Assembly (NCBI GenBank): GCA_044238065.1
Contig: JBIIDY010000001.1
Coordinates: 1 to 35,133, forward strand
DNA from: Limisphaerales bacterium
GTDB taxonomy: Bacteria; Patescibacteriota; JACMRA01
Length of the DNA: 35,133 bases
Reading direction: 5' to 3'
This document shows positions 6,372-35,133 of the stretch, in pieces. Position 1 is the first letter of the stretch, and every line of letters begins with the position of its first letter. The notes below the pieces were generated by a model. It worked only from the letters and a program-made list of their open reading frames with translations. It searched no databases and had not been told where the DNA came from. The position numbers and the translations under genes were made by a program.

Positions 6372-6397
6372 AAAAAAGCCCCCTAGAGGGGTTTGAT
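6372..6397. terminator. Bidirectional intrinsic terminator between convergent genes
   Basis: A-run, cccc-ctaga-gggg hairpin, then a T-rich tail. It sits between the HU stop (6356) and the stop of minus-strand gene 6416..6919. Confidence 0.6.
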
Positions 6398-6415
6398 TAT
6401 TTGGTTTTGTGGTTA

Positions 6416-6919
6416 TTAAATTTTGGAAAGTTCTTTGAGAAAAACTTCACAGAACTGGTTAGCTCCGTCAACTAACATTGGGTTTTTACCTTTGAATTGA
6501 TGTAAAGTTTTTTTGATAATTTTGTCCAGTTTATTTTGACTGATCGGTGCGTCCGCTTTTTTGACTGGAATTTCTTTTTTGATTTCAATTATTTTGACAT
6601 TTTTACCATCAATTGGGTTGTATTTTTGGTCAAGGAAACAAACTCCGCCAAAATCGTAAAGAACGGTGGCAAGGGTTTTCGCATCTGGTTTTTCTCCAAA
6701 TAGGAATTTAGGTAAATCTCCGACTTCGCTAACATTTGCCATAAAAACAGGCTTGTCAGGATTTTGTTGACAATAGGTTTTAAGATTTTCAAGGACGGTG
6801 TGATAATCTGCCAAGACTTCGGGAGTGATGTCAGCAAGATATTTTTGAATTTGTTGGGCTTTTTCAAGCTCTTCTTTGGCTTTTTGACGGTTGAGTATTT
6901 TTTGCTCTTTGAGTTTCAT
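6416..6919 (-). CDS. Hypothetical protein (167 aa)
   Basis: Long ORF with K/E-rich composition like other genes here. It is bracketed by hairpin terminators on both sides. Confidence 0.6.
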   Translation of the reverse strand: MKLKEQKILNRQKAKEELEKAQQIQKYLADITPEVLADYHTVLENLKTYCQQNPDKPVFMANVSEVGDLPKFLFGEKPDAKTLATVLYDFGGVCFLDQKYNPIDGKNVKIIEIKKEIPVKKADAPISQNKLDKIIKKTLHQFKGKNPMLVDGANQFCEVFLKELSKI

Positions 6920-10818: not shown

Positions 10819-11011
10819 ATTTTGGAAAAAATATTTTTAAAAAAGATTTGAGGTTGGAGCCTCTTTTTTTGTTGCGAAAAATTATTGAGGTTGCATGGGC
10901 AAGATTTATAAAGGTTTGAAAAGTTGGCTGTAAAGCTATTAGTTTTTATTGCTAAATTACTAATAAATATATTATAAATTATTTTTTAAATAGTGTCAAG
11001 GAAATTTTCTT

Positions 11012-11125
11012 GTTAATACTTTTTTCTTGATAAAATAGACTTTTTTTTAATAACATTTTTATATTTTCCCCAAAATAAACTTGACAAAATTAGATAAAAT
11101 TAACTTTTTGAGTTAATACTTTTTT
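11012..11125. repeat. Two copies of the 14-bp box gttaatactttttt, exactly 100 bp apart, in the divergent control region
   Basis: Copies at 11012-11025 and 11112-11125, read directly. Confidence 0.7.
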
Positions 11126-11139
11126 ACTATTACAAAAAT

Positions 11140-12685: not shown

Positions 12686-12715
12686 CGTGCCAAGTTGTGT
12701 CAGTTTGTCACGGGT

Positions 12716-12798
12716 GTGATTACCTAAAAAGCGATAAAATAACAATTTCCCAGCGTTGGGAAAACATAACTATAAAATCTTTTTAGGTGATTACCTAA
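12716..12798. repeat. Two copies of gtgattacctaa, 71 bp apart, flanking the hairpin tttccca-gcgt-tgggaaa
   Basis: Copies at 12716-12727 and 12787-12798; hairpin at 12746-12763. Confidence 0.65.
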
Positions 12799-12822
12799 TA
12801 TGGTAGTGTTGTAAAGGGCACT

Positions 12823-12926
12823 GAATAGACAATTTAGCACTGCTTTTTACAATGATTTGACAACTAAAAATATCTATTTAATCAGTAAAAAACCCCACAA
12901 TGAATAGACAGAGAATAGACAATTTA
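12823..12926. repeat. Three copies of GAATAGACA (two extended to gaatagacaattta): operator or iteron-like boxes
   Basis: Copies at 12823-12836, 12902-12910 and 12913-12926, all in the same orientation. Confidence 0.7.
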
Positions 12927-13009
12927 CAATAGATTCCTAATGTCAGGAAAGCGATCAATTTCGGTGTGTACCGAATATGGTCAAAGATACGATTTTTTCG
13001 TATAGTTGG

Positions 13010-13038
13010 TTGACAAATTCTTATATTTTGGGTAAAAA
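13010..13038 (+). promoter_or_regulatory. Sigma70-type promoter positioned for a leaderless transcript of the 42-aa ORF
   Basis: TTGACA (13010-13015), a 17-nt spacer, then TAAAAA (13033-13038). There are exactly 6 nt before the ATG at 13045. Confidence 0.45.
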
Positions 13039-13044
13039 ATTGAT

Positions 13045-13173
13045 ATGTCCAGATTTGCTAAAGTCAAAAAATGCCTAAAAAGAAAGGCTATTAAAAAAAC
13101 TAGAAAAACTAAAATTACTCTACAAAATGGACTTTATAAAAAAGTTTTTGATTATCAATGGAGTTTGTCTTGA
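13045..13173 (+). CDS. Possible 42-aa highly basic protein (MSRFAKVKKCLKRKAIKKTRKTKITLQNGLYKKVFDYQWSLS)
   Basis: Translated by hand; below the ORF-track size cut-off. A promoter lies immediately upstream, and the ORF ends 6 nt before the next promoter. Confidence 0.3.
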   Translation: MSRFAKVKKCLKRKAIKKTRKTKITLQNGLYKKVFDYQWSLS

Positions 13174-13178
13174 TTTTC

Positions 13179-13207
13179 TTGACAAGTTTTGTAATTTTAT
13201 TTATAAT
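13179..13207 (+). promoter_or_regulatory. Perfect consensus sigma70 promoter (TTGACA-17 nt-TATAAT)
   Basis: TTGACA at 13179-13184, spacer agttttgtaattttatt (17 nt), TATAAT at 13202-13207. Confidence 0.7.
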
Positions 13208-13268
13208 ATATTTATTGACATCTGGAAAATCTATGGAATCAGCATAGAAATTCTTTAAAATATAAATG

Positions 13269-13298
13269 TTGACAAATTATAAAAAGTCAGTTTATATT
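13269..13298 (+). promoter_or_regulatory. Second strong sigma70-type promoter
   Basis: TTGACA at 13269-13274, an 18-nt spacer, TATATT at 13293-13298. Confidence 0.55.
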
Positions 13299-13304
13299 TA
13301 AACA

Positions 13305-13369
13305 CCTGATAAAACAGGCACAAACTACCAAGTTTGCGATTTCTCCCTACTGATTCTAGGGAGTTTTTG
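13305..13369 (+). ncRNA. Candidate 65-nt structured RNA or attenuating leader upstream of the antirepressor gene
   Basis: Runs from the predicted TSS near 13305 to the terminator. Hairpins are cctg-ataaaa-cagg, caaact-acca-agtttg, and ctcccta-ctgattc-tagggag followed by T5. Confidence 0.35.
13343..13369 (+). terminator. Intrinsic terminator in the antirepressor leader
   Basis: 7-bp stem ctcccta/tagggag, 7-nt loop, then tttttgt. It lies 115 nt upstream of the ATG at 13485. Confidence 0.6.
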
Positions 13370-13484
13370 TCGTCTGGACTTTTTCTGGACAAAAAAAAGA
13401 ACCCTCTAAAAGAGAGAACAAACCTTGTAAGTTGTTTTCATTTTAGCATAGAAAATTCACCTTGTCAAGTAATTTTTTATAGCT

Positions 13485-15183: not shown

Positions 15184-15226
15184 AAAAAAACCAAATAGTC
15201 AAATAGAAAAAAAATGTAACAATAAA

Positions 15227-15255
15227 ATGCTAATAATAATTAGCTAAATTGTCAA
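15227..15255 (-). promoter_or_regulatory. Candidate sigma70-type promoter for 14590..15183
   Basis: The minus strand reads TTGACA (15255-15250), a 17-nt spacer, then TAGCAT (15232-15227). Confidence 0.4.
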
Positions 15256-15575
15256 ATAAAATTTAATAACTAGGATTTTTCCTTGACATCATTTTAATTT
15301 TCATTCAAACTTCCACCAAGTCCTAAAAAACTTAATTTTACAGATAATAACTAACTGAAAAGGTAAGAAAATCTTTTTTTGAAAATAATTTTTTCGCAAG
15401 TATTTTATTTTTTCTAATTTGATTGTTTTTTTTGGGTTCGCTGCCCAGCTTTTTCTAAAAATCACGGAAAGGCGGAAAATAAAGTTTTAGTATTTTTTCA
15501 TTTTAAATTTTTTACCATTTTTTTGGGACATTTTTGTTTTGATTTCTGTTGTTAACTAAAATTTTCTTGTTCCAT

Positions 15576-15672
15576 TCGGGATCGCGACCCGACCTTTCCC
15601 CGGAAGAAATCTAAATTATAAGGGTGTTTTTTAAGGTGGAGCTTTGTCCGCCCTTATAGCTTAGGTTTTTTT
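15576..15672 (+). other. Locally GC-rich structured segment in a 540-bp non-coding gap
   Basis: Hairpin tcggg-atcgcga-cccga (15576-15592). Long hairpin tataaggg...cccttata (15617-15658) followed by gcttagg and T7. Confidence 0.4.
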
Positions 15673-15742
15673 AAATTTTTTCTATAAGATTTGAAAATCT
15701 AAACGGCTTTTTTTCTCTACCAGTTTGCCACTGGTTTATTTT

Positions 15743-16789: not shown

Positions 16790-17172
16790 TTGAAATTGAA
16801 GAATTGGCTAAATATATCAAACCAGATACTAACGGGCTACCAACGCTTTATTACGAGGGTAATTTGAGAAGTCCAGAGCTTCAAGCGGAGTATGAAAAAG
16901 CAGACAAAGCAAAATGGGTTGAGTTTGTTAAAAATAGTTTAAATGATAATTTGTTTTTACCTTTCATCAATAATTTTCCTTACGACTTGGTTAATGCTTA
17001 TCATTTTGTAGTCTGGATAAATCAGAATCATTTGGATAAAATAAAATCAATTTTAGAATTAGTAGCAAAAACTGACTGTGCTGGATTTGAGTATATCTAT
17101 TTCCAACATCAAAGTCAAAATAAGTCTATTAAAAATTTAATTCATTTTCACTTTTTACTCAAAAAATTATGA
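16786..17172 (+). CDS. Hypothetical protein with DUF3605/HIT-like motifs
   Basis: INNFPYDL...YHFVVW and the C-terminal IHFHFLL recall the NDWPY ... HxHx pattern as I remember it. The resemblance is unverified. Confidence 0.3.
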   Translation: MIEIEELAKYIKPDTNGLPTLYYEGNLRSPELQAEYEKADKAKWVEFVKNSLNDNLFLPFINNFPYDLVNAYHFVVWINQNHLDKIKSILELVAKTDCAGFEYIYFQHQSQNKSIKNLIHFHFLLKKL

Positions 17173-17486
17173 TAAACAAAAAAACAATCGCAGAACTTTT
17201 GGGAATGGAAATGCCAAAACCAAAATTTATCAAAGAAGTTAAAATTCGTATCAAACAAGCTAAAATACTCACACCAGAGCAAAAAGCAATGAAAAATAAA
17301 GCCAATGCCGAATGGGCAAGGAAAAAAAGGGCGACTGACCCTGAATATAGAAAAAGGGCAACCGAAGCCAAAAGAAAATATATGGCAAAAGTAATGGCTG
17401 ACCCAATTCGTAGAAAAAAATATAATGAAACCCAGAGAAAAAATATGGCAAAATATAATCAAAAAAAACTTTTACAAACAGCTTAA
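17169..17486 (+). CDS. Highly basic K/R-rich repeat protein (105 aa), probable nucleic-acid binder
   Basis: Repeated DP-x-(Y/I)R(K/R)... RK(Y/N)MAK motifs. ATGA overlap with the upstream gene. Confidence 0.5.
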   Translation: MINKKTIAELLGMEMPKPKFIKEVKIRIKQAKILTPEQKAMKNKANAEWARKKRATDPEYRKRATEAKRKYMAKVMADPIRRKKYNETQRKNMAKYNQKKLLQTA

Positions 17487-17498
17487 TAATTCCAAATT

Positions 17499-17717
17499 AT
17501 GATCAATCAAGGCAAACCAAACATCGCCCAAGTCTTGGGTAAAAACTACAAACCACCAAGACCAAAAACACCAACAAAGCCAAAAGAAAAGCCAAAATGC
17601 CCGTTCTGTGGATCGCAAAATTCCAGACAGAAAAACGAAACAATTTTTAGGAAATGTAAAGATTGTCAACAACTTTTTATAACTCCAAACTCTTTTTTTA
17701 AAAATAAAAAATTCTAG
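17499..17717 (+). CDS. Basic zinc-ribbon protein (72 aa)
   Basis: CPFCGS ... CKDC, i.e. CxxC-N16-CxxC, with a K/P-rich N-terminus. Confidence 0.55.
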   Translation: MINQGKPNIAQVLGKNYKPPRPKTPTKPKEKPKCPFCGSQNSRQKNETIFRKCKDCQQLFITPNSFFKNKKF

Positions 17718-17867
17718 TTATTATCTAATTTATCATATTTTCTCTATGTTCACAAAAAATTACTTGACAAGAAATTTAAAAAGTTTCTTAATACTACCAG
17801 ATGTTAAGTGTAGTAAGAAGGAAAGCCTTACTAGACTTAATGTCTCTGGCGTTCTGCGTCAGCAAAT

Positions 17868-17900
17868 CCCCCTTGTAGCTTTCCACAGGGGGGCTTTTGT
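17868..17900 (+). terminator. Plus-strand intrinsic terminator ending the accessory operon
   Basis: ccccc(t)tgt-agctttcc-aca-ggggg followed by cttttgtcgtt. Two further hairpins precede it at 17811-17833 and 17846-17862. Confidence 0.55.
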
Positions 17901-17946
17901 CGTTCCCAATTATCTAAAAAACTTATATGTCAGATCCACCAAACGC

Positions 17947-17971
17947 AAAAAAACGAGCCCTGAGAAGCTCG
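17947..17971 (-). terminator. Canonical minus-strand intrinsic terminator
   Basis: The minus strand reads cgagc-ttctcagg-gctcg followed by T7 (17953-17947). Confidence 0.65.
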
Positions 17972-17997
17972 CAAAATCAAGATTTAAGAAATTATTC
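17947..17997 (-). ncRNA. Candidate small RNA of about 50 nt (countertranscript or oop-like) upstream of the replication gene
   Basis: Runs from the predicted TSS near 17997 (6 nt after the -10) to the T7 tract. Predicted RNA: GAAUAAUUUCUUAAAUCUUGAUUUUGCGAGCUUCUCAGGGCUCGUUUUUUU. Confidence 0.5.
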
Positions 17998-18003
17998 AAT
18001 CAC

Positions 18004-18032
18004 ATTATATCACAGATTCAACTATTCGTCAA
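18004..18032 (-). promoter_or_regulatory. Near-perfect extended -10 sigma70 promoter on the minus strand
   Basis: The minus strand reads TTGACG (18032-18027), a 17-nt spacer ending in TGa, then TATAAT (18009-18004). Confidence 0.65.
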
Positions 18033-18127
18033 GGGAATTTTTGAGAATGTCAGTTTTAAGCCAAAAAGTCCTGTTTTTTAAAATCAGGCAAACTCTTTTT
18101 ATTTAAATCTTATCTCAAATTATTAGT

Positions 18128-19270
18128 ATGTCCAAAAAGATAACAATCTTACCACAAATCAAAAAGATAAAATCACTAACCCCAACCGAAAAAAAAGTGG
18201 CTAGTGAAATTGCCAGATTCACCAACCAAGACAAATGGTTTTTTAAAGACCTAAACAACTTTGCCTCTGAGCTAGAAGTTAGCAAGGGAACTTTGAAAAA
18301 TGCTTATGTAAAACTTACCAAACTGGAATGGCTAGAAAAAGACAGAAATGGAAAATATTTTGACTATAAAATGACTCAAAAATTCTTTAATTTTGTAGCA
18401 AATTATGAATCAAATAACAGCCATATTTTCGCTCATTTTAGCAAAGAAACAATGACCGATAAATTACCGAATAATGACCGATTGATGACCGATAAATTAC
18501 CGAATAATGACCAGTCCGTGATAAAAATTACCTTTCCGTCCAGTGTGGAAGCGACAAACCAGCCCTCTAATATATTAAATAATGAATGTATTAAGGATTT
18601 AAATAATGAAATGGTGAAACCTCTCTCACCACGACCGACCGCCACACTTTCAAAATTGGAAATTCTAAAACAAGAAATTCAAGCTAACCCACTTTACCCA
18701 AAAATAATTTCACTTTACCCAAAAATTCCAAGCGAGAGATTAGAAACTGAAATAGAATTTGCTTTAACCAAATACATTGAACTTGGACGCACCAGCGGAG
18801 CTTTTAGCTACATCAAATCTTATTTGTCAAATGCTGATTTCAAAGATGTCTTAACCAACAAAAAACTAGAAATTGAAGACGAAATAAATTCAAGGAGAAA
18901 AACTGCCTACGAACAAAAAGCAAGCCAAAATTCAAGCCAAATCACTACCACAAGCCAAATTGAAGTTGATCCAAATGATTTCCAAACTCAAAATGATTTT
19001 GCTAAATTTACTCAAAAATTAGATGCTGAAGGTAAAAGCTACAAAGTTTTAAGAATTAACTTTACTCGTCAAAGGATCTGGGATGAAGCGACTGAAGCAA
19101 ACGAAAAAGCCCCTGTCGCAACACCAGCACCCCAAAAAAGCGAAGCAAAGACACCAATGGAGATAATGATGGAAGCAATGAAAAAATCTAACCCACAACT
19201 AGCACAGCAAATGGAAAGAGGAGCAAAAAACCCTTCTATCAATATCGCTCAAAAACTAGTTCAAAATTAA
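18128..19270 (+). CDS. Putative replication initiator/replisome organiser (N-terminal winged-helix)
   Basis: The N-terminus TPTEKKVASEIARFTNQDKWFFKDLNNFASELEVSKGTLKNAYVKLTKLEWL is wHTH-like. Phased DNA repeats lie inside the gene. It is located ahead of the nucleotide-metabolism genes. Confidence 0.45.
   Translation: MSKKITILPQIKKIKSLTPTEKKVASEIARFTNQDKWFFKDLNNFASELEVSKGTLKNAYVKLTKLEWLEKDRNGKYFDYKMTQKFFNFVANYESNNSHIFAHFSKETMTDKLPNNDRLMTDKLPNNDQSVIKITFPSSVEATNQPSNILNNECIKDLNNEMVKPLSPRPTATLSKLEILKQEIQANPLYPKIISLYPKIPSERLETEIEFALTKYIELGRTSGAFSYIKSYLSNADFKDVLTNKKLEIEDEINSRRKTAYEQKASQNSSQITTTSQIEVDPNDFQTQNDFAKFTQKLDAEGKSYKVLRINFTRQRIWDEATEANEKAPVATPAPQKSEAKTPMEIMMEAMKKSNPQLAQQMERGAKNPSINIAQKLVQN
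18452..18517 (+). repeat. 2 x 33-bp tandem repeat containing five ACCGA motifs at exact 11-bp spacing (iteron-like)
   Basis: ACCGA starts at 18455, 18466, 18477, 18488 and 18499. The repeat encodes MTDKLPNNDRL / MTDKLPNNDQS. Confidence 0.8.
18690..18726 (+). repeat. Two copies of the 16-bp direct repeat cactttacccaaaaat, 21 bp apart
   Basis: Copies at 18690-18705 and 18711-18726, read directly. Confidence 0.8.
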
Positions 19271-19288
19271 ACCAAATTACTAAAAACT

Positions 19289-19999
19289 ATGTCAGAACAA
19301 CCAACCCAAAAAAATTATCTCGTAGAGCAACCACTTGCTAAACTACAATTTATTGATCCAAATACTGAAAAAAGTATTGTCTATAATGCTAGAGTATCAA
19401 ATCCAAGTTCACAAGCACAAGGGCTAAATGATGGCAAACTAATTGCTTATTGTATCAAAAACGGCCACTGGTCAATTTTAGAGCAAGCCAACGCTAGATT
19501 TGAAATTACAACCTCTCGGGCTATTTCTGCCCAAATCCTTAGACACTCATCAATGTCTTTCCAAGAATACAGCCAAAGATATGCTAAAGTCCAATCAGTC
19601 CAGCCAATACAGGTAAGACTACAAGACAACCAAAACCGCCAAAACTCAATTGACGAAGTCCCAGAAAACATAAGCAACCAAGCTGAAAAAATCTATTACG
19701 AAACAATTGACAAAATTGTAACAGCTTATCAAGAAATGCTAGATCTGGGAGTAGCCAAAGAAGTAGCTAGAATGATAATGCCAATGTCCTCAACCACTAA
19801 AATGTATATCAACGGCACAATTAGAAGCTGGGTGCATTATTTAGAAGTTAGAGCCTTTGGCGAGGGTGTCCAGAAAGAGCATAGACAAATAGCAATGTTA
19901 ATCTGCGAACAATTAGCAAACGAACTACCAATAATCTCAAAGGCTTTAAATTGGAAAGAAAAAATCAAACTAGCAAAATTAAAATTCAATCTAAAATAA
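19289..19999 (+). CDS. thyX: Flavin-dependent thymidylate synthase ThyX
   Basis: The ThyX motif is present as LRHSSMSFQEYSQRY (consensus RHRxxSxxxxSxR, with Ser at the third position). Confidence 0.85.
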   Translation: MSEQPTQKNYLVEQPLAKLQFIDPNTEKSIVYNARVSNPSSQAQGLNDGKLIAYCIKNGHWSILEQANARFEITTSRAISAQILRHSSMSFQEYSQRYAKVQSVQPIQVRLQDNQNRQNSIDEVPENISNQAEKIYYETIDKIVTAYQEMLDLGVAKEVARMIMPMSSTTKMYINGTIRSWVHYLEVRAFGEGVQKEHRQIAMLICEQLANELPIISKALNWKEKIKLAKLKFNLK

Positions 20000-20007
20000 C
20001 CCAAACT

Positions 20008-20262
20008 ATGTCAAACACTACTCACAACTCACCAGCCCTTGAAATAGCAATACTTGCTGAAAAACTACCCAAAACCTACCAAAAAGCACTTTTGAGACTA
20101 GCTAAAACAATGCTAAAACAAAGCGAGAAAGGCAAAGCCAAATATGGGATTGATATTGACCAGAACACAAACCAAAGCCTTAAATACTGGCAAAACCACG
20201 CCGACGAAGAACTGGCAGATTTTCTAGTTTATCAAGAAAAAATTAGAGAGATTACAAAATAA
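20008..20262 (+). CDS. Small MazG-like NTP pyrophosphohydrolase candidate (84 aa)
   Basis: ATG at 20008 after the thyX stop. KYGIDI...YWQNHADEELADFLVYQ resembles the MazG-type helix pattern. Confidence 0.3.
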   Translation: MSNTTHNSPALEIAILAEKLPKTYQKALLRLAKTMLKQSEKGKAKYGIDIDQNTNQSLKYWQNHADEELADFLVYQEKIREITK

Positions 20263-20317
20263 CCACAACTAAGTTTTATAAAAAAGCCCACCTTTTATAA
20301 ACTTATAAAACTAAAAA

Positions 20318-20671
20318 ATGTTAAAACCAAAAATCAGTGAAAGACTACAAAACGATCTTTCAAACAACCAAATCAAAAAACTAGACAGAATCGAATTAGA
20401 AAGACGTCGCCAAAATTCAATTTTTAATAATCTGTTTTTTAGTGAAAAATATCTAATCGCCTTTATAGGGTCGTTAATTGATTTTAACAATTCGCCTATA
20501 AGAGCTTTTTTGGAAAGATGCGAACGAATAGAAAAAAAACACCCAGCCTGGACATTATCCCAAATAGTCAAAGCAGCAGAATTTGGCAAGGGAACGGGAC
20601 CTAAACCAAAATATGAATTACGACCAGAACAGACTAAAAACCTCAAATCAAAGTGGGGTAAATTATCATAA
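20318..20671 (+). CDS. Hypothetical protein immediately upstream of the first late box (candidate regulator)
   Basis: Same orientation and composition as its neighbours, and preferred over the overlapping minus-strand ORF 20311..20730. Confidence 0.5.
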   Translation: MLKPKISERLQNDLSNNQIKKLDRIELERRRQNSIFNNLFFSEKYLIAFIGSLIDFNNSPIRAFLERCERIEKKHPAWTLSQIVKAAEFGKGTGPKPKYELRPEQTKNLKSKWGKLS

Positions 20672-20673
20672 TC

Positions 20674-20690
20674 TTTACACGCCGTATTAG
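20674..20690 (+). promoter_or_regulatory. Conserved 17-bp box TTTACACGCCGTATTAG, copy 2 (ahead of terS)
   Basis: TTTACA, a 17-nt spacer, TATTGT (20697-20702), then exactly 6 nt before the ATG at 20709. Confidence 0.6.
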
Positions 20691-20708
20691 AAAAGGTATT
20701 GTTAAGAT

Positions 20709-21122
20709 ATGAGATTAGAGAACCCATCACACGAGGCTTTTTGTCTTGAATATATGAAAAATGGCTTTAACGCGACTAGAGCCTATATGTCTGTTTATCC
20801 AGATACAAAAGAACCATCAGCAAGAGCCAGTGCAAGTGAATTGCTAACAAATCTTAACATCACCAAAAGAATAACCGAAATACAAGATGAATTAGCGGAA
20901 AACTGGGGCATAGACATTCAAGAAGTGGTTAATTCAATCAAAAAAACAAGGGCATCAGCAAAATCTCAAAATGACTTTAACGCCTCACTAAAAGCCGATG
21001 ATATGCTACTGAAAATAAGAGGCGGTTATGCGGTTGAAAAGAAAGAATTCATTACTCCACAATTCCCAACTCAAATCAATTTTCAACTTTTAGAACAATT
21101 AGATGAGCCAAACAAACCTTAA
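20709..21122 (+). CDS. terS: Terminase small subunit
   Basis: HEAFCLEYMKNGFNATRAYMSVYP...SARASASELLTNLNITKRI is the Terminase_2-type N-terminal pattern. It overlaps terL. Confidence 0.75.
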   Translation: MRLENPSHEAFCLEYMKNGFNATRAYMSVYPDTKEPSARASASELLTNLNITKRITEIQDELAENWGIDIQEVVNSIKKTRASAKSQNDFNASLKADDMLLKIRGGYAVEKKEFITPQFPTQINFQLLEQLDEPNKP

Positions 21123-22485
21123 ACTTTTCAAAAAGCAATTACAAGCTTGTAAATACCTCTTTGACCCAAATTGGCAAGGAGAGCTTTGTTTTGGCGGTGC
21201 GGCTCGTGGTGGCAAGTCTTTTTTAGGTTGTTCGTGGATTGTTAGCCAAGCAATGGCATTTCCAGAGTCAAATTGGCTGATTGGTTTCGAAGAGTTAAAA
21301 CACCTACGCAGAACTACATTACCAGATTTAATCAAAATAATTCAAATAATTACCGAGCCAATGAACGGGCGAAACTGGAAAAACACTTTTCATCTAAATT
21401 TACAAGATTTAATAATTCAATTTATAAACGGTTCAAAAATCTTTTTAGCAGAACTTGCCAACCTACCAAGCGACCCAAACTTTGACAGACTGGGTTCATA
21501 TTCCCTAACTGGTGTTTGGATTGACGAAGCCCAAAGAGTGTCAATTAAAGCTAAAAGCACCTTAGCCGCTCGTTTATCACTAACACAAGGCAAAGGCTGG
21601 AAAACAAGCCCAAAAGCACTCTATACTTGTAACCCAACACGTGGCTGGATTTATGAAGATTTTTGGAAACCTTACAAAAGCCAAAACCCAAAAGAGGGTA
21701 AAGTTTTTATTCAAAGTCTCTACACAGACAACCCAGCTATTGATCATGAAAAATACAAAAAGCAAATCTTAGCCAGTGGTGATAAAACCCAAATTGAACG
21801 CCTTTTATACGGTAATTTTGACTACGACAGCGACGACTCAAAACTTTTCAATTACGACAAAATTTTAGATATTTTCTCAAACTTTGTAGAAAAATCAAAC
21901 AGTAAATTCATAACTTGCGATGTCGCCCGAATGGGTAGAGACAAAACAGTAATTTATACTTGGCAAGGTTGGAACGCTTTTGAAAGATTTGAAATAAAAA
22001 CATCTGCCCTTACCGAAATAGTCAATGAAATTGAAAAACTACGACAAAAGCACTTAATCTCAAAATCTAATGTAATTGTTGACGAGGGAGGTGTTGGAGG
22101 CGGTGTGGTTGATTTTGGAGGCTACAAAGGCTTTATTTCCAACGCTTCGCCAATCCAAGAAGACAGCAAGCTTAGTTTAGAAAAGAAACCAATCAAAAAC
22201 TATAACCATCTCAAAACTCAATGCTATTTTTACCTTGCTGATATGGTGAATAACTCAAAAATGACAATCACTGCCCAAATGGACGCTGAAACTCGAGAAA
22301 ATCTAATCGCAGAACTGGACACTGTAAAACAGCACAATATAGATAAAGACGGTAAATTACAAGTCTTACCAAAAGACAAACAAAAAGAGCTTTTAGCTGG
22401 AAGAAGTCCAGACGACGGCGACGCCTTAATGATGAGAGCTTATTTTGACTTAAAACCAACTTTCAAAATTACAATCCCAAATTAG
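21103..22485 (+). CDS. terL: Terminase large subunit
   Basis: Walker A GGAARGGKS and Walker B VWIDEAQ, with a C-terminal nuclease-sized domain. Size and position fit. Confidence 0.9.
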   Translation: MSQTNLKLFKKQLQACKYLFDPNWQGELCFGGAARGGKSFLGCSWIVSQAMAFPESNWLIGFEELKHLRRTTLPDLIKIIQIITEPMNGRNWKNTFHLNLQDLIIQFINGSKIFLAELANLPSDPNFDRLGSYSLTGVWIDEAQRVSIKAKSTLAARLSLTQGKGWKTSPKALYTCNPTRGWIYEDFWKPYKSQNPKEGKVFIQSLYTDNPAIDHEKYKKQILASGDKTQIERLLYGNFDYDSDDSKLFNYDKILDIFSNFVEKSNSKFITCDVARMGRDKTVIYTWQGWNAFERFEIKTSALTEIVNEIEKLRQKHLISKSNVIVDEGGVGGGVVDFGGYKGFISNASPIQEDSKLSLEKKPIKNYNHLKTQCYFYLADMVNNSKMTITAQMDAETRENLIAELDTVKQHNIDKDGKLQVLPKDKQKELLAGRSPDDGDALMMRAYFDLKPTFKITIPN

Positions 22486-22486
22486 T

Positions 22487-23797
22487 ATGTTCAACCCAAC
22501 AGATTTTTACAATAATTTAATTAGTCAAATTTCATCATCATTCGTTGACAGGGGGCAAATTTTCCTTTCACCAGTCTTGACTTGGACAACTTATAAAAGT
22601 GCTGCTAAAAATGCTATTATTCAAAAACTAATCCAGATCACAAACGGGTCAATAAATCAAAATGGCTGGGACATTAAAGTCAAAACTTACCAGAGCGAAA
22701 AAAAGAATGAAAAACTATCAAGGGAAATCTACCAAATCTGTGAAGAAATAAACCTTGTTGGTCTTTTTTGGCAAATAATCTCACTTGGGCTAACTTATGG
22801 CAACTGTTTCATTGTAATAGCTGATAACAAGCCAAAAGTCTATACTCCTGATATGTTCAATATCTACTGGAATAAATATACCCAAAAAGTAGTCAAAATC
22901 ACTGCTAACATTGACGGACGAGAGCAACAAACTGATTTTGTAATGGGCGAGAACTTTTTTCATTTCAAATACTTTTTATACGAAAACGAGGGGCTTGCTG
23001 ATTCAATCCTTGACACAATTTATGTTTGGTTAGAATTTGAAAAAATAGCAATCGCAGTCAACTCAAATATGATTGAGCGTGGAAATATAGGCATTGTAAT
23101 CCCAATTTTTGAGAAAGAAATGAGCGAGGCTTTGGAAAGACCAGTAATGGAAACTCCAGACGGCGAACCAACCTCAACTTTGAACGTTTTACTTAGAAAA
23201 TTTAGAGAATTATTTGGCGGATGGCAAAACTCCCACAAAATGGCTACAATGATGACTGGTGTTAGGGAAATAGTAGAACTTGGCAAAGATAATGACAAAA
23301 TGCAACTCCAAGATATGTTTGACCGAGCAGAGGCTAAGTATTACGACGCTTTTGGAATTGAAAGAACCACTGAAAACTCCAACCGTGCCAGTGCTTCAAC
23401 CCTAACCTACCAACTAGATAATAATATCGCCAAAGCGTGGGAAAACCAACTAGAAAGGTTTGTCAATCAATTCTTGTGGAAAAATTGTATAAACCCAATA
23501 ATGGTTGAGAAATTTGGTTATTCTTTTGAAAATTCTGCTCAAATCTATTTTCAATTTAATAAGCCCTCTGATCCCGACGAATTAGCTAAAATGACACTTT
23601 ACCGAGATACTTTCATAAATTCAGCAAGTATAGGCAAACCGCTTTTGACCTTAAACGAAACTAGAGAATTTTTAGGACTTCCTGAAGCACCAACCGAACT
23701 TTTGGAACTTTGGCAACAAGCCAACCAACCAACCTTACCAACTCAAAACCAACCTCAATTAAATTTTGAGGCAAAAAAAAATCACCAACCGAATTAG
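22487..23797 (+). CDS. Portal protein
   Basis: 436-aa ORF immediately after terL (tagtATG junction). Called on position and size. Confidence 0.7.
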   Translation: MFNPTDFYNNLISQISSSFVDRGQIFLSPVLTWTTYKSAAKNAIIQKLIQITNGSINQNGWDIKVKTYQSEKKNEKLSREIYQICEEINLVGLFWQIISLGLTYGNCFIVIADNKPKVYTPDMFNIYWNKYTQKVVKITANIDGREQQTDFVMGENFFHFKYFLYENEGLADSILDTIYVWLEFEKIAIAVNSNMIERGNIGIVIPIFEKEMSEALERPVMETPDGEPTSTLNVLLRKFRELFGGWQNSHKMATMMTGVREIVELGKDNDKMQLQDMFDRAEAKYYDAFGIERTTENSNRASASTLTYQLDNNIAKAWENQLERFVNQFLWKNCINPIMVEKFGYSFENSAQIYFQFNKPSDPDELAKMTLYRDTFINSASIGKPLLTLNETREFLGLPEAPTELLELWQQANQPTLPTQNQPQLNFEAKKNHQPN

Positions 23798-23799
23798 CT

Positions 23800-24522
23800 T
23801 TGGAAAGTAAAGACTACTCAAGCCTAAAATACAATGATAAAACCAAAAAGAAAGAGCCAAAAGGATTTTTGCCAGCTTGGGAAAAAGCAATCACAAAACA
23901 ACTAACACAATTCATCACAGACTACCAAAAAGACCAAAAAGCAACCTTACCTAAAATAGAAACATTTTATAGTTTTAACGCCCTTAAAAAAGACTTATTC
24001 GTGTGGATTGATTTTGGAATTGAAAACGCCAAAAAAGAAATCGCAAGTGAAAAATTTGCTGAAAATCTGGATTACTCCAAAGAAATTATGGGATGGGTTG
24101 ACAAACGAGCCGAAGCCCTACTGAAAGGAAACGAACTTTTTAAATCAGTTGACGAAGCCACAAGCACCCAAATTTTGGACATTATCAAAGCTGAAGTGGA
24201 AGCCAAAAAACCAATAACTGAAATTGTCAAAACTTTGACCGACTGGGTGCCAAAAATAAGCAAAAACAGAGCGGAACTAATAGCAGAGACAGAAGTCGCC
24301 AGTGCGGTTGAGTTTGGCAGATTTGACCACTTTGAAAGCGAGGGCTTTACTGAAAAAAAGCAACTGTCAATAAACGACGGACGAGATACAATCTGGTCTA
24401 AAAAAGCAGCGGCACTTGGCTGGGTTGACATCAATTTTGAGTATGAAACTCAATTTGGTAAAAAGTCAAAAACCTTACCTTTAAATTACCGAGAAAGGGG
24501 AACTTTGATATTTAGAAGTTAA
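23800..24522 (+). CDS. Head morphogenesis protein (Mu F / SPP1 gp7-like)
   Basis: RAELIAETEVASAVEFGRFDHFESEG matches the Mu F-family core. It appears to start with TTG, 3 nt after the portal stop. Confidence 0.65.
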   Translation: MESKDYSSLKYNDKTKKKEPKGFLPAWEKAITKQLTQFITDYQKDQKATLPKIETFYSFNALKKDLFVWIDFGIENAKKEIASEKFAENLDYSKEIMGWVDKRAEALLKGNELFKSVDEATSTQILDIIKAEVEAKKPITEIVKTLTDWVPKISKNRAELIAETEVASAVEFGRFDHFESEGFTEKKQLSINDGRDTIWSKKAAALGWVDINFEYETQFGKKSKTLPLNYRERGTLIFRS

Positions 24523-24539
24523 GTAAAAATTAAGTAAAT

Positions 24540-24556
24540 TTTACACGCCGTATTAG
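24540..24556 (+). promoter_or_regulatory. Conserved 17-bp box TTTACACGCCGTATTAG, copy 3 (ahead of the scaffold/capsid genes)
   Basis: TTTACA, an 18-nt spacer, TATGAT (24564-24569). The ATG at 24596 implies a leader of about 20 nt. Confidence 0.6.
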
Positions 24557-24595
24557 AAAATTGTATGATAAGAATATACTTAAAATATATTTATT

Positions 24596-25453
24596 ATGCA
24601 ATTAGAAACATTTTCAAAAGACGGAGTGAACGGCTACAAAATCATTGGGGCTACCTTTGCCAGTTCTAAAAATCACAACGGAGCTTACTTTGACCCAGTT
24701 GAAGTATTTGCTGACGAAATCAACGAAAACTTTAATTTAGCACACCAAGACTACAAAACAGACTATTCCAGCGGAACTACAATAACCAAAGCACCAGAGG
24801 CAAAACTAGAGGGCAAATTATTACGTTTTACTTGGGATTTGGAAACTACCAACGAGAATTTTATCAATCTAATTGAAAAAGAAGAATTTGGCGGTTTCAG
24901 TCCAGAGCTTGAGCCAACCAGCAGTCCAGTTTTGGGGAAGGAAATTGGAAAAGATAAAAACGGTCAACCAATTTATGAAAGGTTTTATTCTCAAAATCTA
25001 AAATGGAAATCTACCGCTATTCTTACCAAAGACCAAAAAGCAGGTTTTGTCGGAGCGAAAGATTTTGCCCTTGAGAAATTTGAAGCCTTTGAAGATGTGG
25101 TAATTGAAAAAGTGGAAGAGCCAACTCCCAAAGAAATTATTAAAGAAAATTTTGACGCAACTGTTTTGGAGGCTAGAATTGAAAAATTAGAAACTGAACT
25201 CAACCAAATCAAAGAAAATTTTAGCAAAAAAGAAACCGAAAAAGAAGACTTTTCAAATGATGACCTAATAGACCAAAAAGCCAGATTAGAGGCAGACATT
25301 GCCAAACTAACGGCTGAAAAAACCAAAACAGAAAATTTTACTACTTTATCTCAAAACTCTCAAGCGGTCAAGTTATCAAAGAATGGATCTGTTGTAACAA
25401 AAACTGATGAGATTAAAAAGAGAAACACTATTAACCAAATTATACCAAACTAA
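24596..25453 (+). CDS. Capsid scaffolding protein (a protease-scaffold fusion is possible)
   Basis: E/K-rich coiled-coil C-terminal half, directly upstream of the capsid gene. Confidence 0.5.
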   Translation: MQLETFSKDGVNGYKIIGATFASSKNHNGAYFDPVEVFADEINENFNLAHQDYKTDYSSGTTITKAPEAKLEGKLLRFTWDLETTNENFINLIEKEEFGGFSPELEPTSSPVLGKEIGKDKNGQPIYERFYSQNLKWKSTAILTKDQKAGFVGAKDFALEKFEAFEDVVIEKVEEPTPKEIIKENFDATVLEARIEKLETELNQIKENFSKKETEKEDFSNDDLIDQKARLEADIAKLTAEKTKTENFTTLSQNSQAVKLSKNGSVVTKTDEIKKRNTINQIIPN

Positions 25454-25458
25454 CTACT

Positions 25459-26730
25459 ATGTCCAATCCAACCAAAAAACTTGAGGCTTTTAATAAAATA
25501 ATTGATGTTTTGACATCTGCCAAATCTGCCCGTTCTAGTATAGAAGAATTTGCTACAAAGATTTTTGAAGATAAAAATGACTTATCTAAAAAAGTAAATG
25601 TAGCTATTGACTACGCTGCAAGCCAAAGCGAAACTTGGAGAGAAGATTTTAACCGAGCTTTTAACCAAGAAATGGGTATTAAAGAAGATTTTGAGTATTT
25701 AAAATTACTTAGTGATGAGGCTAAAAATGTCCAAGCTGAAAATTTTGACAAAGCACAAATGGAATACTTTGACGTAACCGCTGAAGAAACAGGATCAGGT
25801 AAAACTGCACTCCGTTCAAGCAACCTTATTTCAACAAACATTTTAACCGCTGGTGACGCTTATTTTAGAAAATACTCACAACTTTTCAAATATCTTCGTG
25901 TAATTACTGGGGTTGATACTTACAGAATCCCTGAATTTGGAATTGAACGAACTGACGCCGCTAAAGTTGCTGAAAGTGCAGAAGGAACTGGTGCTGATGA
26001 TGTCGCAAGGCAAGGTGATTTGCTTACTCCTGGTGAGGGTGGTCAAAAATTCAAATCTTGGACAAGGATTACCGAATTAGCACTTTTGAAAATGAACCCT
26101 GTTGACTGGGGAACAATGCAGGCTAGAATACTTCGTGGACTTGAAAAAACCCTTGCTGTCCAAGTTGCTACTGGTGATAATGCTGGCGGTAATTTCAACG
26201 GCTTTATTAACTCAAATACTGGTGCTACCGCTTTTGGTGCTTTGACTGTAACATTTGCGACTACTGGTGCTGAAAAACCAGCCAACCACTTAATGGCGAT
26301 GTCAAAAATGCTTAAAGATTTGCCAGCGGATATTGATGAAGATGAAGAGGCTAACTATGTATTCTTAACCAATAGATTTACTAGATACACTCTAAAAGAA
26401 GTAATGGATTTGAATAACAACCTTTACACAAACGAGAAGACAAATAAACTAACTTCTTTGATTGATAATCTTCCTATTCTTCAATGGCCAGGTCTTACCA
26501 ATAACCAAGTTTTGCTAGTTGATTTGAGAAAATACTACATGCTTTTGGCTAAACCAATCACTATTGAAATTGAAAAAGAAGTGAACAAAGAAACATTTAT
26601 CGTCAAAGCAGTTGCTTACGCAGACGGAGGTATGGCTTTTGGCTACAAAACACTCGCAGACGGAACAACCGCTAACACTCAAAAGAACGGTCACCGTTTG
26701 GGAACTCTTAAAACTGATTATGCTGTCTAG
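25459..26730 (+). CDS. Major capsid protein
   Basis: 423-aa ORF after the scaffold gene; synteny fits an HK97-fold capsid. I did not recognise a motif with certainty. Confidence 0.7.
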   Translation: MSNPTKKLEAFNKIIDVLTSAKSARSSIEEFATKIFEDKNDLSKKVNVAIDYAASQSETWREDFNRAFNQEMGIKEDFEYLKLLSDEAKNVQAENFDKAQMEYFDVTAEETGSGKTALRSSNLISTNILTAGDAYFRKYSQLFKYLRVITGVDTYRIPEFGIERTDAAKVAESAEGTGADDVARQGDLLTPGEGGQKFKSWTRITELALLKMNPVDWGTMQARILRGLEKTLAVQVATGDNAGGNFNGFINSNTGATAFGALTVTFATTGAEKPANHLMAMSKMLKDLPADIDEDEEANYVFLTNRFTRYTLKEVMDLNNNLYTNEKTNKLTSLIDNLPILQWPGLTNNQVLLVDLRKYYMLLAKPITIEIEKEVNKETFIVKAVAYADGGMAFGYKTLADGTTANTQKNGHRLGTLKTDYAV

Positions 26731-30486: not shown

Positions 30487-33132
30487 ATGAACGAGAACAT
30501 TATCAACCTAATTATTCAAGCTAAAAACTTGTCTAGCAACGCCCTAAACCAAGTCAAGGGTCAATTAGCTGATTTATCAAAACATAGTGAAAAAACAGGC
30601 AATATAATGGCTGGAATGGGCGATAATTTCAAAAAAGCTGTTAGTGCGGTGGCGATTGGTGCTGGAATTATGGGTGGAGCGATAGCTGGAATTTCAGTTG
30701 TTGGTTTTAATACTGCGGCATCTTTTCAAACTCAAATGTCGTCAATTAGTGCTTTGACTGGTGCTACAGCAAGGGATATGGACGAGGTGCGGAAAGTTGC
30801 CTTGAAAGCTGGTGAAGAAACGGCTTTTTCTGCCCTTGAAGCGGCACAAGGTTTGGAAGAATTGCTAAAATCTGGATTAAATATAGAACAAGCTAAAACT
30901 GGATTAAAAGGTGCTTTAGATTTGGCGGCTGCTGGTGGTGTGAGTGTTGCTGACGCTGCGGAAATAGCAAGCACGGCTCTAAATGCTTTCAAAAATGATA
31001 GTTTGTCGGTTGCTCAAGCTAGTGATATTTTGGCTGGTGCTGCGAATGCTAGTGCGACTTCCGTTGGCGAATTAAAACTTGGGCTGTCTGCTGTTTCTGC
31101 TGTTGCGGCAGGAGTTGGAATGAGTTTTAAGGATACAAACACCGCTTTAGCTCTTTTTGCCCAAAATGGACTGAAAGGATCAGACGCTGGAACAAGTTTG
31201 AAAACAATGTTTTTGAATTTACAGCCAACTACTAAGGCTCAAATCGGTTTATTTGCAGAGCTGGGACTAACAACAACTAAAACAACAACTATCTTTGAAG
31301 AAAATACAAAAGCCACTGGTAAAAATGCTGAGAAAATACAGGAACTTCGGCAGAAAATTGAAGAATTAACTAGCAAAGGTTTAGAAAAGTCAGGTGTGGC
31401 AGTTAATAAAAACAATGAGGCACTAAACAAATATAGAACCCAAATCGCTGGACTTCAGGATAAAATAGATGTACTCAAGACTAAACAAGGTGAGTGGAAT
31501 GAAAAAACAAAAGAAAGCACTAAATTAACAAATCAAAATCAAATTGAAAAATACACAAGCCAAATAGGTAATTTAAGCTCTAAAATTCAAGAGGTTAGTA
31601 AATCAAGTGTTTCACTAGATGTTTTGCCAAAAGATACTCAAGAGAAAATAAGCAAACTTAAAGAACAAATACAGGGACTTGGCGGAGTTGTTGGTAAAAC
31701 TAAAGATGTAACCGTAGAAACTGGAAACGCTTTTTTCACCGCAGAGGGCAAAGTCAAATCTTTGGCAGAAATTTCAGGAGTTTTAAAAAATGCTTTGAAA
31801 GACCAAACAGACCAGCAAAGATTAGCAAGTTTAGAGGTTCTTTTTGGCTCGGACGCAATTCGTGCTGCGAACATCCTTTACAAAGAGGGTGCTGATGGTG
31901 TGAATAATATGGCTGGGGCAATGTCAAAATTTACCGCTGCTGATGTTGCCAAAGAAAAACTAAACAATTTTAATGGAGTTCTGGACGCTTTCAAAGGCTC
32001 GTTGGAAACTAAACAAATTGAGATTTTTTCAAAAGCACTACCCTTTGCTACTGACGCTATAAAATTGATGGACGAAGCCCTAAAAAAGATTGATGTAGAG
32101 GCTGTTTTTACTGATTTGGGTAATAAATTTAATTATCTAAAAACTCAACTAGAAACGGCTAAAAAATGGGTAGATGATAATAAAACTGCAATTGAAACAT
32201 TAGCGGTAATACTTGGTAGTTTTGCGATAGCTTGGGGAATTGTTAGCGGTGCGATTGCTATTTATAATGGTGCGATTGCTTTGGGAACTACTTTGACAAC
32301 TGCTTACGGGGCTGCGGTTGTTTTTCTTACTGGGCCGTTTGGCTTGGCTGTTTTGGCGATTGGTGCTTTAATTGCGATTGGTTATTTACTTTATAAAAAC
32401 TGGGATTTGATAAAAGCTACGGCGTTTGCGGTTAGTAGTGCGGTTGCTGGTTGGTTTGCTCAAAAGTGGAAAGAAATTGGTAATTGGTTTAATTGGTTGG
32501 GAAATTTGGCAATCCAAAAATGGAATGAAATGATAGCTGGTGTAAACGCTTTGACAAGCGGTATTACAAACTTTTTTGGAAATATGATAAATGGTATAGT
32601 CAACGGATTTAATAATTTAGATATGTGGCAAATTGGCTCAAATATAATGACTGGACTTGGTAATGGACTTTGGGCAATGGTTGACCGAGCAATGGGGCCT
32701 ATAAACTGGCTAATGAAACAAGTAGACGCAGTTCTTGGCAAACAATCTCAAGCTCAAAATAATGCTAATTCTCAAAGCACTTACGATTTTGGAACTGCTA
32801 GGAGTGGAAAAGGCAACGCTTGGGCAAAAGGTGGAGCTTTTCAAAATGGAAATGTCGTAGCTTTTGCTGATGGCGGAGTAGTCAATAGACCGACTAATTT
32901 TGCGATGAGTGGAGGCAGACTTGGTTTGATGGGCGAAGCTGGAGCGGAGGCGATAATGCCTTTGTCAAGGGGAAAGGATGGCAAACTTGGCGTCAAAGCA
33001 GAGGGCGGAGGCTCTACTGTAATTATCAATAACCCAGTCTTTTTGAGTGGTGATGAAAATGTAGCAAGGCAATTTGTCAAGTCTATTGAAGACCAACTTT
33101 TTAAATCTTTTCAAAAATTTAGTAAAATCTAG
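30487..33132 (+). CDS. Tape measure protein
   Basis: 881 aa, A/G/K-rich helical, with central hydrophobic helices and the C-terminal motif GLMGEAGAEAIMPL. Confidence 0.9.
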   Translation: MNENIINLIIQAKNLSSNALNQVKGQLADLSKHSEKTGNIMAGMGDNFKKAVSAVAIGAGIMGGAIAGISVVGFNTAASFQTQMSSISALTGATARDMDEVRKVALKAGEETAFSALEAAQGLEELLKSGLNIEQAKTGLKGALDLAAAGGVSVADAAEIASTALNAFKNDSLSVAQASDILAGAANASATSVGELKLGLSAVSAVAAGVGMSFKDTNTALALFAQNGLKGSDAGTSLKTMFLNLQPTTKAQIGLFAELGLTTTKTTTIFEENTKATGKNAEKIQELRQKIEELTSKGLEKSGVAVNKNNEALNKYRTQIAGLQDKIDVLKTKQGEWNEKTKESTKLTNQNQIEKYTSQIGNLSSKIQEVSKSSVSLDVLPKDTQEKISKLKEQIQGLGGVVGKTKDVTVETGNAFFTAEGKVKSLAEISGVLKNALKDQTDQQRLASLEVLFGSDAIRAANILYKEGADGVNNMAGAMSKFTAADVAKEKLNNFNGVLDAFKGSLETKQIEIFSKALPFATDAIKLMDEALKKIDVEAVFTDLGNKFNYLKTQLETAKKWVDDNKTAIETLAVILGSFAIAWGIVSGAIAIYNGAIALGTTLTTAYGAAVVFLTGPFGLAVLAIGALIAIGYLLYKNWDLIKATAFAVSSAVAGWFAQKWKEIGNWFNWLGNLAIQKWNEMIAGVNALTSGITNFFGNMINGIVNGFNNLDMWQIGSNIMTGLGNGLWAMVDRAMGPINWLMKQVDAVLGKQSQAQNNANSQSTYDFGTARSGKGNAWAKGGAFQNGNVVAFADGGVVNRPTNFAMSGGRLGLMGEAGAEAIMPLSRGKDGKLGVKAEGGGSTVIINNPVFLSGDENVARQFVKSIEDQLFKSFQKFSKI

Positions 33133-34903: not shown

Positions 34904-35133
34904 ATGTCTTTTACTTTACCAAATCCGCAAAAAAACGACTTCGCAAGTGGTCAAATCTTGTCTTTTTCACATCTTAATAATAACGCAAATAATGTAATCG
35001 CAATGGCTAACTATATTGGAAGTGCTAATATGATGTCTGCTAATTTAATAAGTACTTACGCTTTGCCGTCAACTGCTGGTTATAATAATTTGGCAGGCTG
35101 GACATTAAGCAAATCTGTTGGTGCTAGCGGCGT
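34904..35133 (+). CDS. Tail fibre protein, 5' portion (continues at base 1 through the junction)
   Basis: ATG at 34904 in an aaatATG context. It stays open to the window end, and from 35007 it duplicates bases 1-127. Confidence 0.65.
   Translation, partial: MSFTLPNPQKNDFASGQILSFSHLNNNANNVIAMANYIGSANMMSANLISTYALPSTAGYNNLAGWTLSKSVGASG
35007..35133. repeat. Terminal overlap, right copy (identical to 1-127)
   Basis: Same 127-bp string as the window start. It lies inside a coding region, which fits circular closure better than a physical end. Confidence 0.95.

Follow-up and report, generated by a model that had tools for sequence, protein, structure and literature searches.

Which signal switches on the late genes of the phage assembled as contig JBIIDY010000001.1 (assembly GCA_044238065.1), and which protein reads that signal? 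The whole contig, 35,133 nucleotides (nt) long and referred to here as the window, is a circularly assembled genome of a siphovirus-like phage (~35.0 kb, 33-38% G+C), and it contains three exact copies of a 17-bp sequence, TTTACACGCCGTATTAG (box A), all on the + strand and each at the head of a late gene block. We propose, with a probability of roughly 60%, that the boxes are late promoters in which an 11-bp segment of the spacer acts as a phage-type-specific code, read by a small basic protein whose gene immediately precedes terS (open reading frame (ORF) ORF117, 20318-20671, + strand). Late-gene switches are known in detail for few model phages, and the locus offers a testable regulator-and-site system in an uncultured lineage.

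Firstly, box A is confined to the heads of the late blocks. An exact search places the three copies at 981-997, 20674-20690 and 24540-24556, as a preliminary description of the window had it; all three are intergenic and begin 2, 2 and 17 nt past the preceding stop codons (978, 20671 and 24522). Copy 1 heads the genes 1017-2081 and 2083-2853, an amidase gene and an XhlA-like gene; copy 2 heads terS, terL, the portal gene and a gp7-like gene; and copy 3 heads the gene for a 285-residue protein in a scaffold-like position, the capsid gene and the tail genes through to 978. The block contents first suggested hold for the packaging genes (terS and terL were assigned by Pfam Terminase_2 and Terminase_6N), for the capsid and tail genes and for the lysis genes, whereas the LamG label given to the copy 1 block comes down to a weak Laminin_G_3 match in the second gene of the related contig L114. 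Together the boxes fill three of the six gaps of at least 12 nt (979-1016, 4376-4409, 4692-4704, 5287-5416, 20672-20708 and 24523-24595) in the late region, which runs from 20.7 kb through the wrap-around to ~6 kb. Even with 3 mismatches allowed, neither strand of the window holds a further match to box A (in 100 dinucleotide-preserving shuffles the mean is 0.06 matches and none reaches 3), and box A is absent from the early regions both of the window and of the relatives' contigs examined. A partial match, ACACGCCGT at 28330, already set aside as unrelated in the preliminary description, is a chance occurrence, being located within a gene and showing synonymous variation among relatives. Direct and inverted repeats are lacking in 20480-20760, and neither flanking repeats nor a common inverted repeat were found around the boxes.

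Secondly, each copy is embedded in a sequence laid out like a sigma-70 promoter. Box A consists of a -35-like hexamer, TTTACA, and the 11-bp segment CGCCGTATTAG, and the TAT-type hexamers previously pointed out do follow the TTTACA on the + strand at 18, 17 and 18 nt: TATGGT at 1005-1010 (copy 1), TATTGT at 20697-20702 (copy 2) and TATGAT at 24564-24569 (copy 3). All three copies have sigma-70-type spacing (17 ± 1 bp), and the same layout recurs in the box types B and D described below. The 17-mer itself stands as first delimited, but it is not the whole element: alignment of the three copies gives the pattern box, N6-7, GTATnnTnnnnATAT, a second conserved block whose spacing from the first varies by 1 nt. 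Across copies and relatives the -10 variants (TATGGT, TATTGT, TATGAT, TATTAT and TATAGT) differ only at positions 4 and 5. The A-type -35 and -10 together match the sigma-70 consensus at 9-10 of 12 positions; as background, 24 of the 260 TT[GT]AC[AT] sites in the window have a -10-like hexamer at that spacing. Host sigma-70-type RNA polymerase would use the near-consensus -35 (TTTACA) and the TAnnnT -10 of each copy, which would place the 11-bp segment, the putative phage-type-specific code, at about -29 to -19, directly after the -35.

The predicted transcription starts are 1017, 20709 and ~24576. At copy 1 the -10-like hexamer is followed by TGAAAT (6 nt) and the ATG of gene 1017-2081 (1005-1019 overall), and at copy 2 by TAAGAT (6 nt) and the terS ATG at 20709 (20697-20711 overall). 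With the ATG 6 nt past the -10, transcription is expected to start on or next to the A of the ATG, so that the terS and 1017 units would be expressed as leaderless mRNAs; relative L107 keeps the geometry of copy 1 (TATAGT, then CAAAAT, then ATG). The terS start at 20709 is the only one possible because the Terminase_2 match begins at residue 7 and an in-frame TAA lies two codons upstream, and the metagenome gene call P0011 (122 residues) therefore starts 15 codons late. At copy 3 an AT-rich leader of ~20 nt precedes the ATG at 24596 (24564-24598 overall). The leader region of copy 3 (24559-24603) can form a 14+4 bp hairpin covering the ATG of the 285-residue gene (-12.4 kcal/mol, z = -2.7), which is kept in L002, L010 and L116 with no clear compensatory changes.

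Leaderless geometry fits a host that does not use Shine-Dalgarno sequences, none of which was found at any gene start of the window (55 genes). In the 20 nt upstream of the genes G is nearly absent, with T at -1 in 49 of 55 cases and A at -3 in 35 of 55. The host appears to use canonical sigma-70 promoters (TTGACA/TATAAT), early intergenic DNA containing two perfect TTGACA-17-TATAAT sites and several sites matching at 11 of 12 positions, with TTGACA occurring 12 times in 2.9 kb of non-coding sequence. A Bacteroidota-type promoter (-33 TTTG / -7 TAnnTTTG) was considered and rejected, with 0 composite matches in non-coding DNA against five for TTGACA-N17-19-TAnnnT. Canonical early promoters together with a lack of Shine-Dalgarno sequences make an unusual combination, which may help to identify the host.

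The distances around the box bear on whether it is a promoter at all. A role in RNA or another role in DNA, whether as a translational enhancer or processing site for genes lacking a Shine-Dalgarno sequence or as a packaging or recombination site, would suit a genome without such sequences, and a translation signal would also account for the constant spacing of 35-36 nt between box start and ATG at six sites (two of type A, two of type D, B in L114 and E). However, that distance is 54-56 nt at copy 3 and 70 nt in L111 and L120 while the distance to the -10 stays at 16-18 nt, which favours a promoter over a translation signal. The box stands ahead of only 3 of ~55 genes, its three dispersed copies are unfit for a pac or att site, and neither a common RNA fold among the copies (z-scores of 0.66, -1.36 and -2.66, with different folds) nor an Rfam match was found. 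We consider such a role very improbable.

Thirdly, the box is preserved where its surroundings are not. To find relatives, we started from homologues of ORF117, terS and the 1017 protein and went on to their contigs (the L numbers used here), which come from metagenome and raw-read assemblies of several sources (JGI, ENA, Logan); the lineage is rare. L010, L011, L116 and L118 keep box A unchanged at the heads of both terS and the 285-residue gene; L119 does so ahead of terS and L107-L110 ahead of the 1017 homologue, and L002 combines a single substitution (G17A) in its terS box with an exact box at the head of the 285-residue gene. Meanwhile the sequence upstream of copy 3 diverges among L011, L010 and L002, the linker and -10 positions 4 and 5 vary (TATAGT in L107, TATTAT in L010), and neighbouring proteins have diverged in L002 (TerL 58% and TerS 52% identical). 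The persistence of an exact box amid varying flanks, linker and neighbouring genes argues for purifying selection on all 17 bases, and this exceeds what sigma-70 contacts alone explain: sigma-70 does not read spacer bases, so that the invariance of the spacer needs another reader.

The same invariance tells against ordinary, unregulated sigma-70 promoters that would serve as internal boosters and owe their identity to copying or gene conversion, with ORF117 merely linked to the terS copy. A -35/spacer/-10 architecture does not in principle need an extra factor, the phage encodes an Erf recombinase, and the association of ORF117 with terS could be one of linkage. Conversion would homogenise adjacent bases too, yet the 6-7 nt that follow the box and -10 positions 4 and 5 differ between copies, and at least 8 contigs of different samples share the 17 bases without change. 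In addition, four other phage types keep a uniform box of their own at distal sites, with distal box and regulator gene seen together only in A and C. Unregulated promoters are thus an improbable explanation.

The position of the element is conserved more widely than its sequence, with box A exact in the close relatives and other box types in the more distant ones. Type B (TTGACACTTCCTATTAG) lies ahead of the 1017 homologue in L111-L114, L120 and L121; type D (TTGACTGACAACATTAA) precedes terS in L122 and the 1017 homologue in L115; type E (TTGACACCACGAAATCA) lies ahead of terS in L127; and type C (ATTTGAAATATCCAAAAATAAAT) occurs four times in L117, once each before terS, the portal gene, a scaffold-position gene and a tail gene, of which the last copy is reduced to its first 15 nt, TTTGAAATATCCAAA. 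For types B, D and E the contigs are partial. In L114 the flanking coding sequences are homologous to those of the window and only the promoter segment has been exchanged. Types A, B, D and E open with a -35-like hexamer (TTTACA, TTGACA or TTGACT), followed 16-18 nt further on, in A, B and D, by a hexamer of the form TAnnnT or CAnnnT (TACTAT, GATAAT, TACAGT and CATATT are found in B and D); this spacing holds for the three A sites, for the two B contexts and for D in L115, while D in L122 has CATATT. The GC-rich core of box A, ACGcCGT, had been read in the preliminary description as a palindromic site for a dimeric protein, a view that the other types contradict: its equivalents in B, D and E (CTTCCTA, TGACAAC and CCACGAA) are asymmetric, without dyad symmetry, and no inverted repeat is common to the types.

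Searches for further copies of these boxes yielded little beyond the homologous sites. A metagenome scan with TTTACACGCCGTAT-N9-10-GTAT gave 15 matches, all in unrelated coding DNA of differing GC content (a transposase-like ORF, for example), and these were dismissed as chance; scans of IMG/VR returned L002 and one chance match for box A, four chance matches for box D and none for box B. Degenerate extra copies of box B (up to 4 mismatches) were likewise rejected, 3 being observed against a shuffle mean of 0.75 and maximum of 4. In L111 (5509) and L120 (2285) a second intergenic sigma-70-like promoter, TTGACAGTTCAAACTAG-N-TATATT, follows the 1017 homologue, and its 13/17 match to box B is not significant alone.

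Finally, the box type changes together with the gene upstream of terS. ORF117 (isoelectric point (pI) 10.05) is the last gene before terS and ends 2 nt before box A copy 2 and 37 nt before terS itself. In the A, C, D and E types the gene directly upstream of terS belongs to one family of small basic proteins (117-125 residues, pI 9.6-10.1), whose members diverge according to the box: ORF117 alleles accompanying box A are 88-99% identical to ORF117, P0024 (ORF123) of L127 with box E is 39% identical, L122 ORF125 / P0025 with box D is 30-33% identical (E = 7e-16), and ORF121 of L117 with box C is 22-26% identical. The neighbours of these alleles are 85-98% identical where the box type differs. 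In L122, TerS is 86% identical and the ORF upstream of it only 33%, and in L117, ThyX, ORF103 and the zinc-ribbon protein are 98%, 89% and 85% identical, whereas ORF117 yields no tblastn match there and ORF121 stands behind the conserved DNA that lies upstream of the ORF117 start.

Three candidate partners had been put forward for the box, and only ORF117 is backed by the comparison, since its alleles alone track the box type. The 72-residue zinc-ribbon protein (17499-17717) shows no co-variation with the box, remaining 85% identical in L117 in spite of a wholly different box, and has only sub-threshold Pfam matches, to Lar and PaaD; the A-type relative L010 lacks the basic protein (17169-17486). 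In the A and C genomes the distal boxes match the terS-proximal one, so that linkage alone cannot explain the pairing. The four additional box types, changing as they do with the gene upstream of terS, lend weight to the earlier suggestion that the switch is phage-specific and that the phage encodes its partner. We infer that the boxes function as promoters and are bound by ORF117, which most likely reads the 11-bp code and would act most probably as an activator. Three units would thereby be co-regulated, comprising the packaging genes, the head and tail genes, and the host-recognition and lysis genes.

Several observations weigh against this proposal. ORF117 has no recognisable DNA-binding domain: ORF117 and its alleles fall into no Pfam or PHROG family at E ≤ 0.01-0.05, ORF117 finds no match in a PDB profile search or with Foldseek against PDB and BFVD, and two AlphaFold runs gave poor, mostly helical models of low confidence (predicted local distance difference test (pLDDT) scores of 60 and 64). 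An exhaustive HMMER search of 1.8 billion representatives returned just three relatives of short length, namely P0002, which is a close homologue, and the alleles P0024 (123 residues) and P0025 (124 residues), along with two long proteins whose matches look spurious. Boxes C (L117) and E (L127) lack a clean -10 at 16-18 nt. The pairing at the terS head may partly reflect physical linkage, given that distal copies accompany the regulator gene only in A and C, and the type B regulator was not found, the contig of P0018, sought for the type B terS head, beginning inside terS. No terminator lies ahead of any box, so that read-through could already express the downstream genes. Lastly, the type B promoters are near consensus (TTGACA-17-GATAAT or TACTAT) and look strong enough to fire without an activator, which would fit a repressor or an antiterminator equally well.

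With a repressor, the spacer segment would be the operator at which a phage protein, possibly ORF117 or a prophage repressor, keeps late promoters that are intrinsically active switched off until the late phase or during lysogeny. In type B above all, the core elements come close to consensus, and the conserved segment falls between -35 and -10, a common position for repressors. The phage is probably temperate, as it encodes an integrase domain, an antirepressor and Erf, and the copy 1 block holds lysis genes, which must stay silent in a lysogen. Yet the A-type -35 and -10 are imperfect, no dyad symmetry is common to the box types, and the place of the ORF117 gene is the classic one for a late activator and not for a maintenance repressor (PMC3753634). 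A repressor is therefore unlikely in our judgement.

With an antiterminator, the promoters would be constitutive and the spacer segment would be the loading site for ORF117, comparable to the Q-binding element (QBE) between -35 and -10 of lambda PR'. A type-specific element in the spacer, a regulator gene immediately upstream and the exchange of both together are indeed hallmarks of the lambdoid Q/QBE systems. However, no terminator-like hairpin is found within ~400 nt downstream of any box (none on the + strand), and at two copies coding begins at the predicted +1, leaving no room for a promoter-proximal pause/terminator unit; furthermore there are three copies rather than one, and ORF117 has no Pfam match to the Q families. 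We see only a slight chance of an antiterminator. Reading of the spacer code by ORF117 as an activator of the three late promoters is the explanation that we prefer.

The arrangement of the remaining genes completes the picture of the late region. The contig ends share an identical 127-bp overlap (1-127 and 35007-35133), from which it follows that the genome was assembled as a circle, and a tail gene beginning near 34911 runs across the junction into 24-434. The early/replication region (6.4-20.3 kb) includes genes for Erf, YopX, the antirepressor, an O-like initiator and ThyX. Next come ORF117 and the packaging block, then the head/tail block, which contains the tape-measure gene (30487-33132) and extends through the junction to 978, and then the last block, in which 1017-2081 encodes a 354-residue protein and 2083-2853 a virion protein and which ends, after the amidase and XhlA-like genes, with integrase pieces. 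No DNA-level match to 17000-26000 was found by megablast against the 50,697 phage records of the INPHARED collection, nor did tblastn of the capsid protein give a match. TerL is ~40% identical to those of Bacteroidota phages such as Flavobacterium phage 11b and of candidate-phyla (CPR) metagenome-assembled genomes, and a TerL-based genome scan gave 80 loci (35-56% identity), mostly Bacteroidota prophages and CPR metagenome-assembled genomes, among which no box was found; at the best of them, L012 (56%), an unrelated helix-turn-helix-like ORF abuts terS.

A number of further features were noted in the window and its relatives. The portal gene (22487-23797) and the gp7-like gene (23800-24522, TTG start) lie in different frames just past a run of nine A (23773-23800) and form a single gene of 676-681 residues in L010, L011, L116 and L118; the frame break marks a pseudogene, an error of assembly or a programmed frameshift. 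A separate ORF of 196 residues carries the tyrosine-integrase catalytic domain and is preceded by an ORF of 193 residues without matches and a 130-nt gap (4705-5286 and 5417-6007), a split also present in L107-L110 and L114; in the window a HU-family gene (6063-6356) comes next. In the early region, ~800 bp of non-coding DNA (12686-13484) is dense in near-perfect sigma-70 promoters on both strands (13179, 13269, and on the - strand 13468 and 14493) and in terminator-like hairpins (13343, and 13338 on the - strand); this may be a regulatory or small-RNA region, or an immunity switch, and other non-coding stretches lie at 10819-11139 and 15184-15724. Among the early genes of the B-type relative L114, whose genome is of similar size, one encodes a tubulin-family protein (PF00091; 12027-13058, - strand), and in the A-type L010 an IS605 OrfB/TnpB (Cas12f-like) gene is inserted in the early region (5476-6669). 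L117 contains four 11-bp tandem repeats (AAAAGTAACCG-like, 2622-2687) within the gene upstream of the DnaB helicase gene, and these are probably origin iterons. The more distant phage L005 (TerL 44% identical) has a palindrome-containing box, AAATTTGCAnCnAnGTTGCAAA, at four places (4994, 9593, 12104 and 16557), one of them directly after terL, and this box may be a counterpart at the heads of operons, with a TTTG motif.

If ORF117 does read the spacer beside an intact -35, it would steer sigma-70 polymerase in an unusual way and could yield orthogonal promoter-factor pairs. The natural variants A-E, a site of 17 bp and three targets per genome amount to a ready-made specificity swap. The placement of the ATG at +1 without a Shine-Dalgarno sequence, if it is what it seems, would extend leaderless late expression beyond the Thermus phages. 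The boxes are useful for annotation too, as markers of the late transcription units and as confirmation of where terS truly starts. The ORF117 family may even represent a previously undescribed class of late-transcription specificity factors, a suggestion that we make tentatively and at somewhat worse than even odds; such a class would combine an asymmetric ~11-bp code in the upstream half of the spacer beside an intact -35, at least 4-5 interchangeable allele-box types in one phage lineage, multiple leaderless late promoters and a host without Shine-Dalgarno sequences.

How does this arrangement compare with late-gene control elsewhere? Late transcription in Gram-positive phages is activated by the Ltr proteins, which include RinA, ArpU, LtrA, LtrB and LtrC (Ferrer, 2011, PMC3152322; Quiles-Puchalt, 2013, PMC3753634) and are small, basic and encoded by the last gene before terS (PMC3753634). 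ORF117 resembles them in being small and basic (pI 10.05) and the product of the last early-cluster gene just upstream of terS, in having its candidate site at or just past the end of its own gene, in the joint variation of regulator allele and site between phages (A/ORF117, D/ORF125, E/ORF123 and C/ORF121), and in its proposed control of packaging, morphogenesis and lysis genes. It differs in lacking sequence or fold similarity to RinA, ArpU, the Sigma70_r4-like LtrA, the DUF1492 protein LtrB and LtrC. Moreover, the site here is a single 17-bp box within the promoter (-35 plus spacer), in contrast to the direct repeats upstream of terS in the Ltr systems, and a genome carries three (A) or four (C) late promoters rather than a single one, in a host without Shine-Dalgarno sequences where two of the transcripts look leaderless.

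Promoters that come several to a genome with one element and one small activator are found in Mu, where they depend on C (Plys, PI, PP and Pmom), and in P2/P4, where the late promoters depend on Ogr/Delta; these promoters have a poor -35 and dyad-symmetric sites overlapping or upstream of the -35 (~-55 for Ogr). The likeness lies in several late promoters with a common element heading morphogenesis and lysis blocks (three copies of box A in the window, four of box C in L117), whereas here the -35 is near consensus and the segment lies inside the spacer, asymmetric in B, D and E; no Mor/C or Ogr Pfam matches were found among the early proteins. In the T4 middle promoters a MotA box at -30 replaces the -35, with appropriation of sigma by AsiA. 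These too share a conserved box over -35 to -25 and an ordinary sigma-70 -10 among many promoters of one temporal class, but a canonical -35 is retained here in A, B, D and E and no homologues of MotA or AsiA were detected. The lambda Q/QBE pairs are alike in the type-specific element between -35 and -10, the regulator gene directly upstream and cognate pairs that differ among related phages, and unlike in that the boxes here occur in three copies, have no downstream terminator or pause unit and have an ORF at the predicted +1. Thermus phages phiYS40 and P23-45 make leaderless middle and late transcripts from extended -10 promoters that lack a -35 and depend on other phage factors; late-class mRNAs starting at the start codon are predicted here as well, from promoters with a -35 and in an unrelated host and phage lineage.

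The element thus falls outside the Ltr, Mu/P2 and Q types because it shows no homology to them, no repeat arrays or dyads, an intact -35, a site inside the spacer and no terminator. In function, the closest counterparts of the proposed switch appear to be the Ltr/RinA/ArpU late activators, and its several promoters under one small protein would also recall Mu (C) and P2 (Ogr), whose late regulons comprise several promoters.

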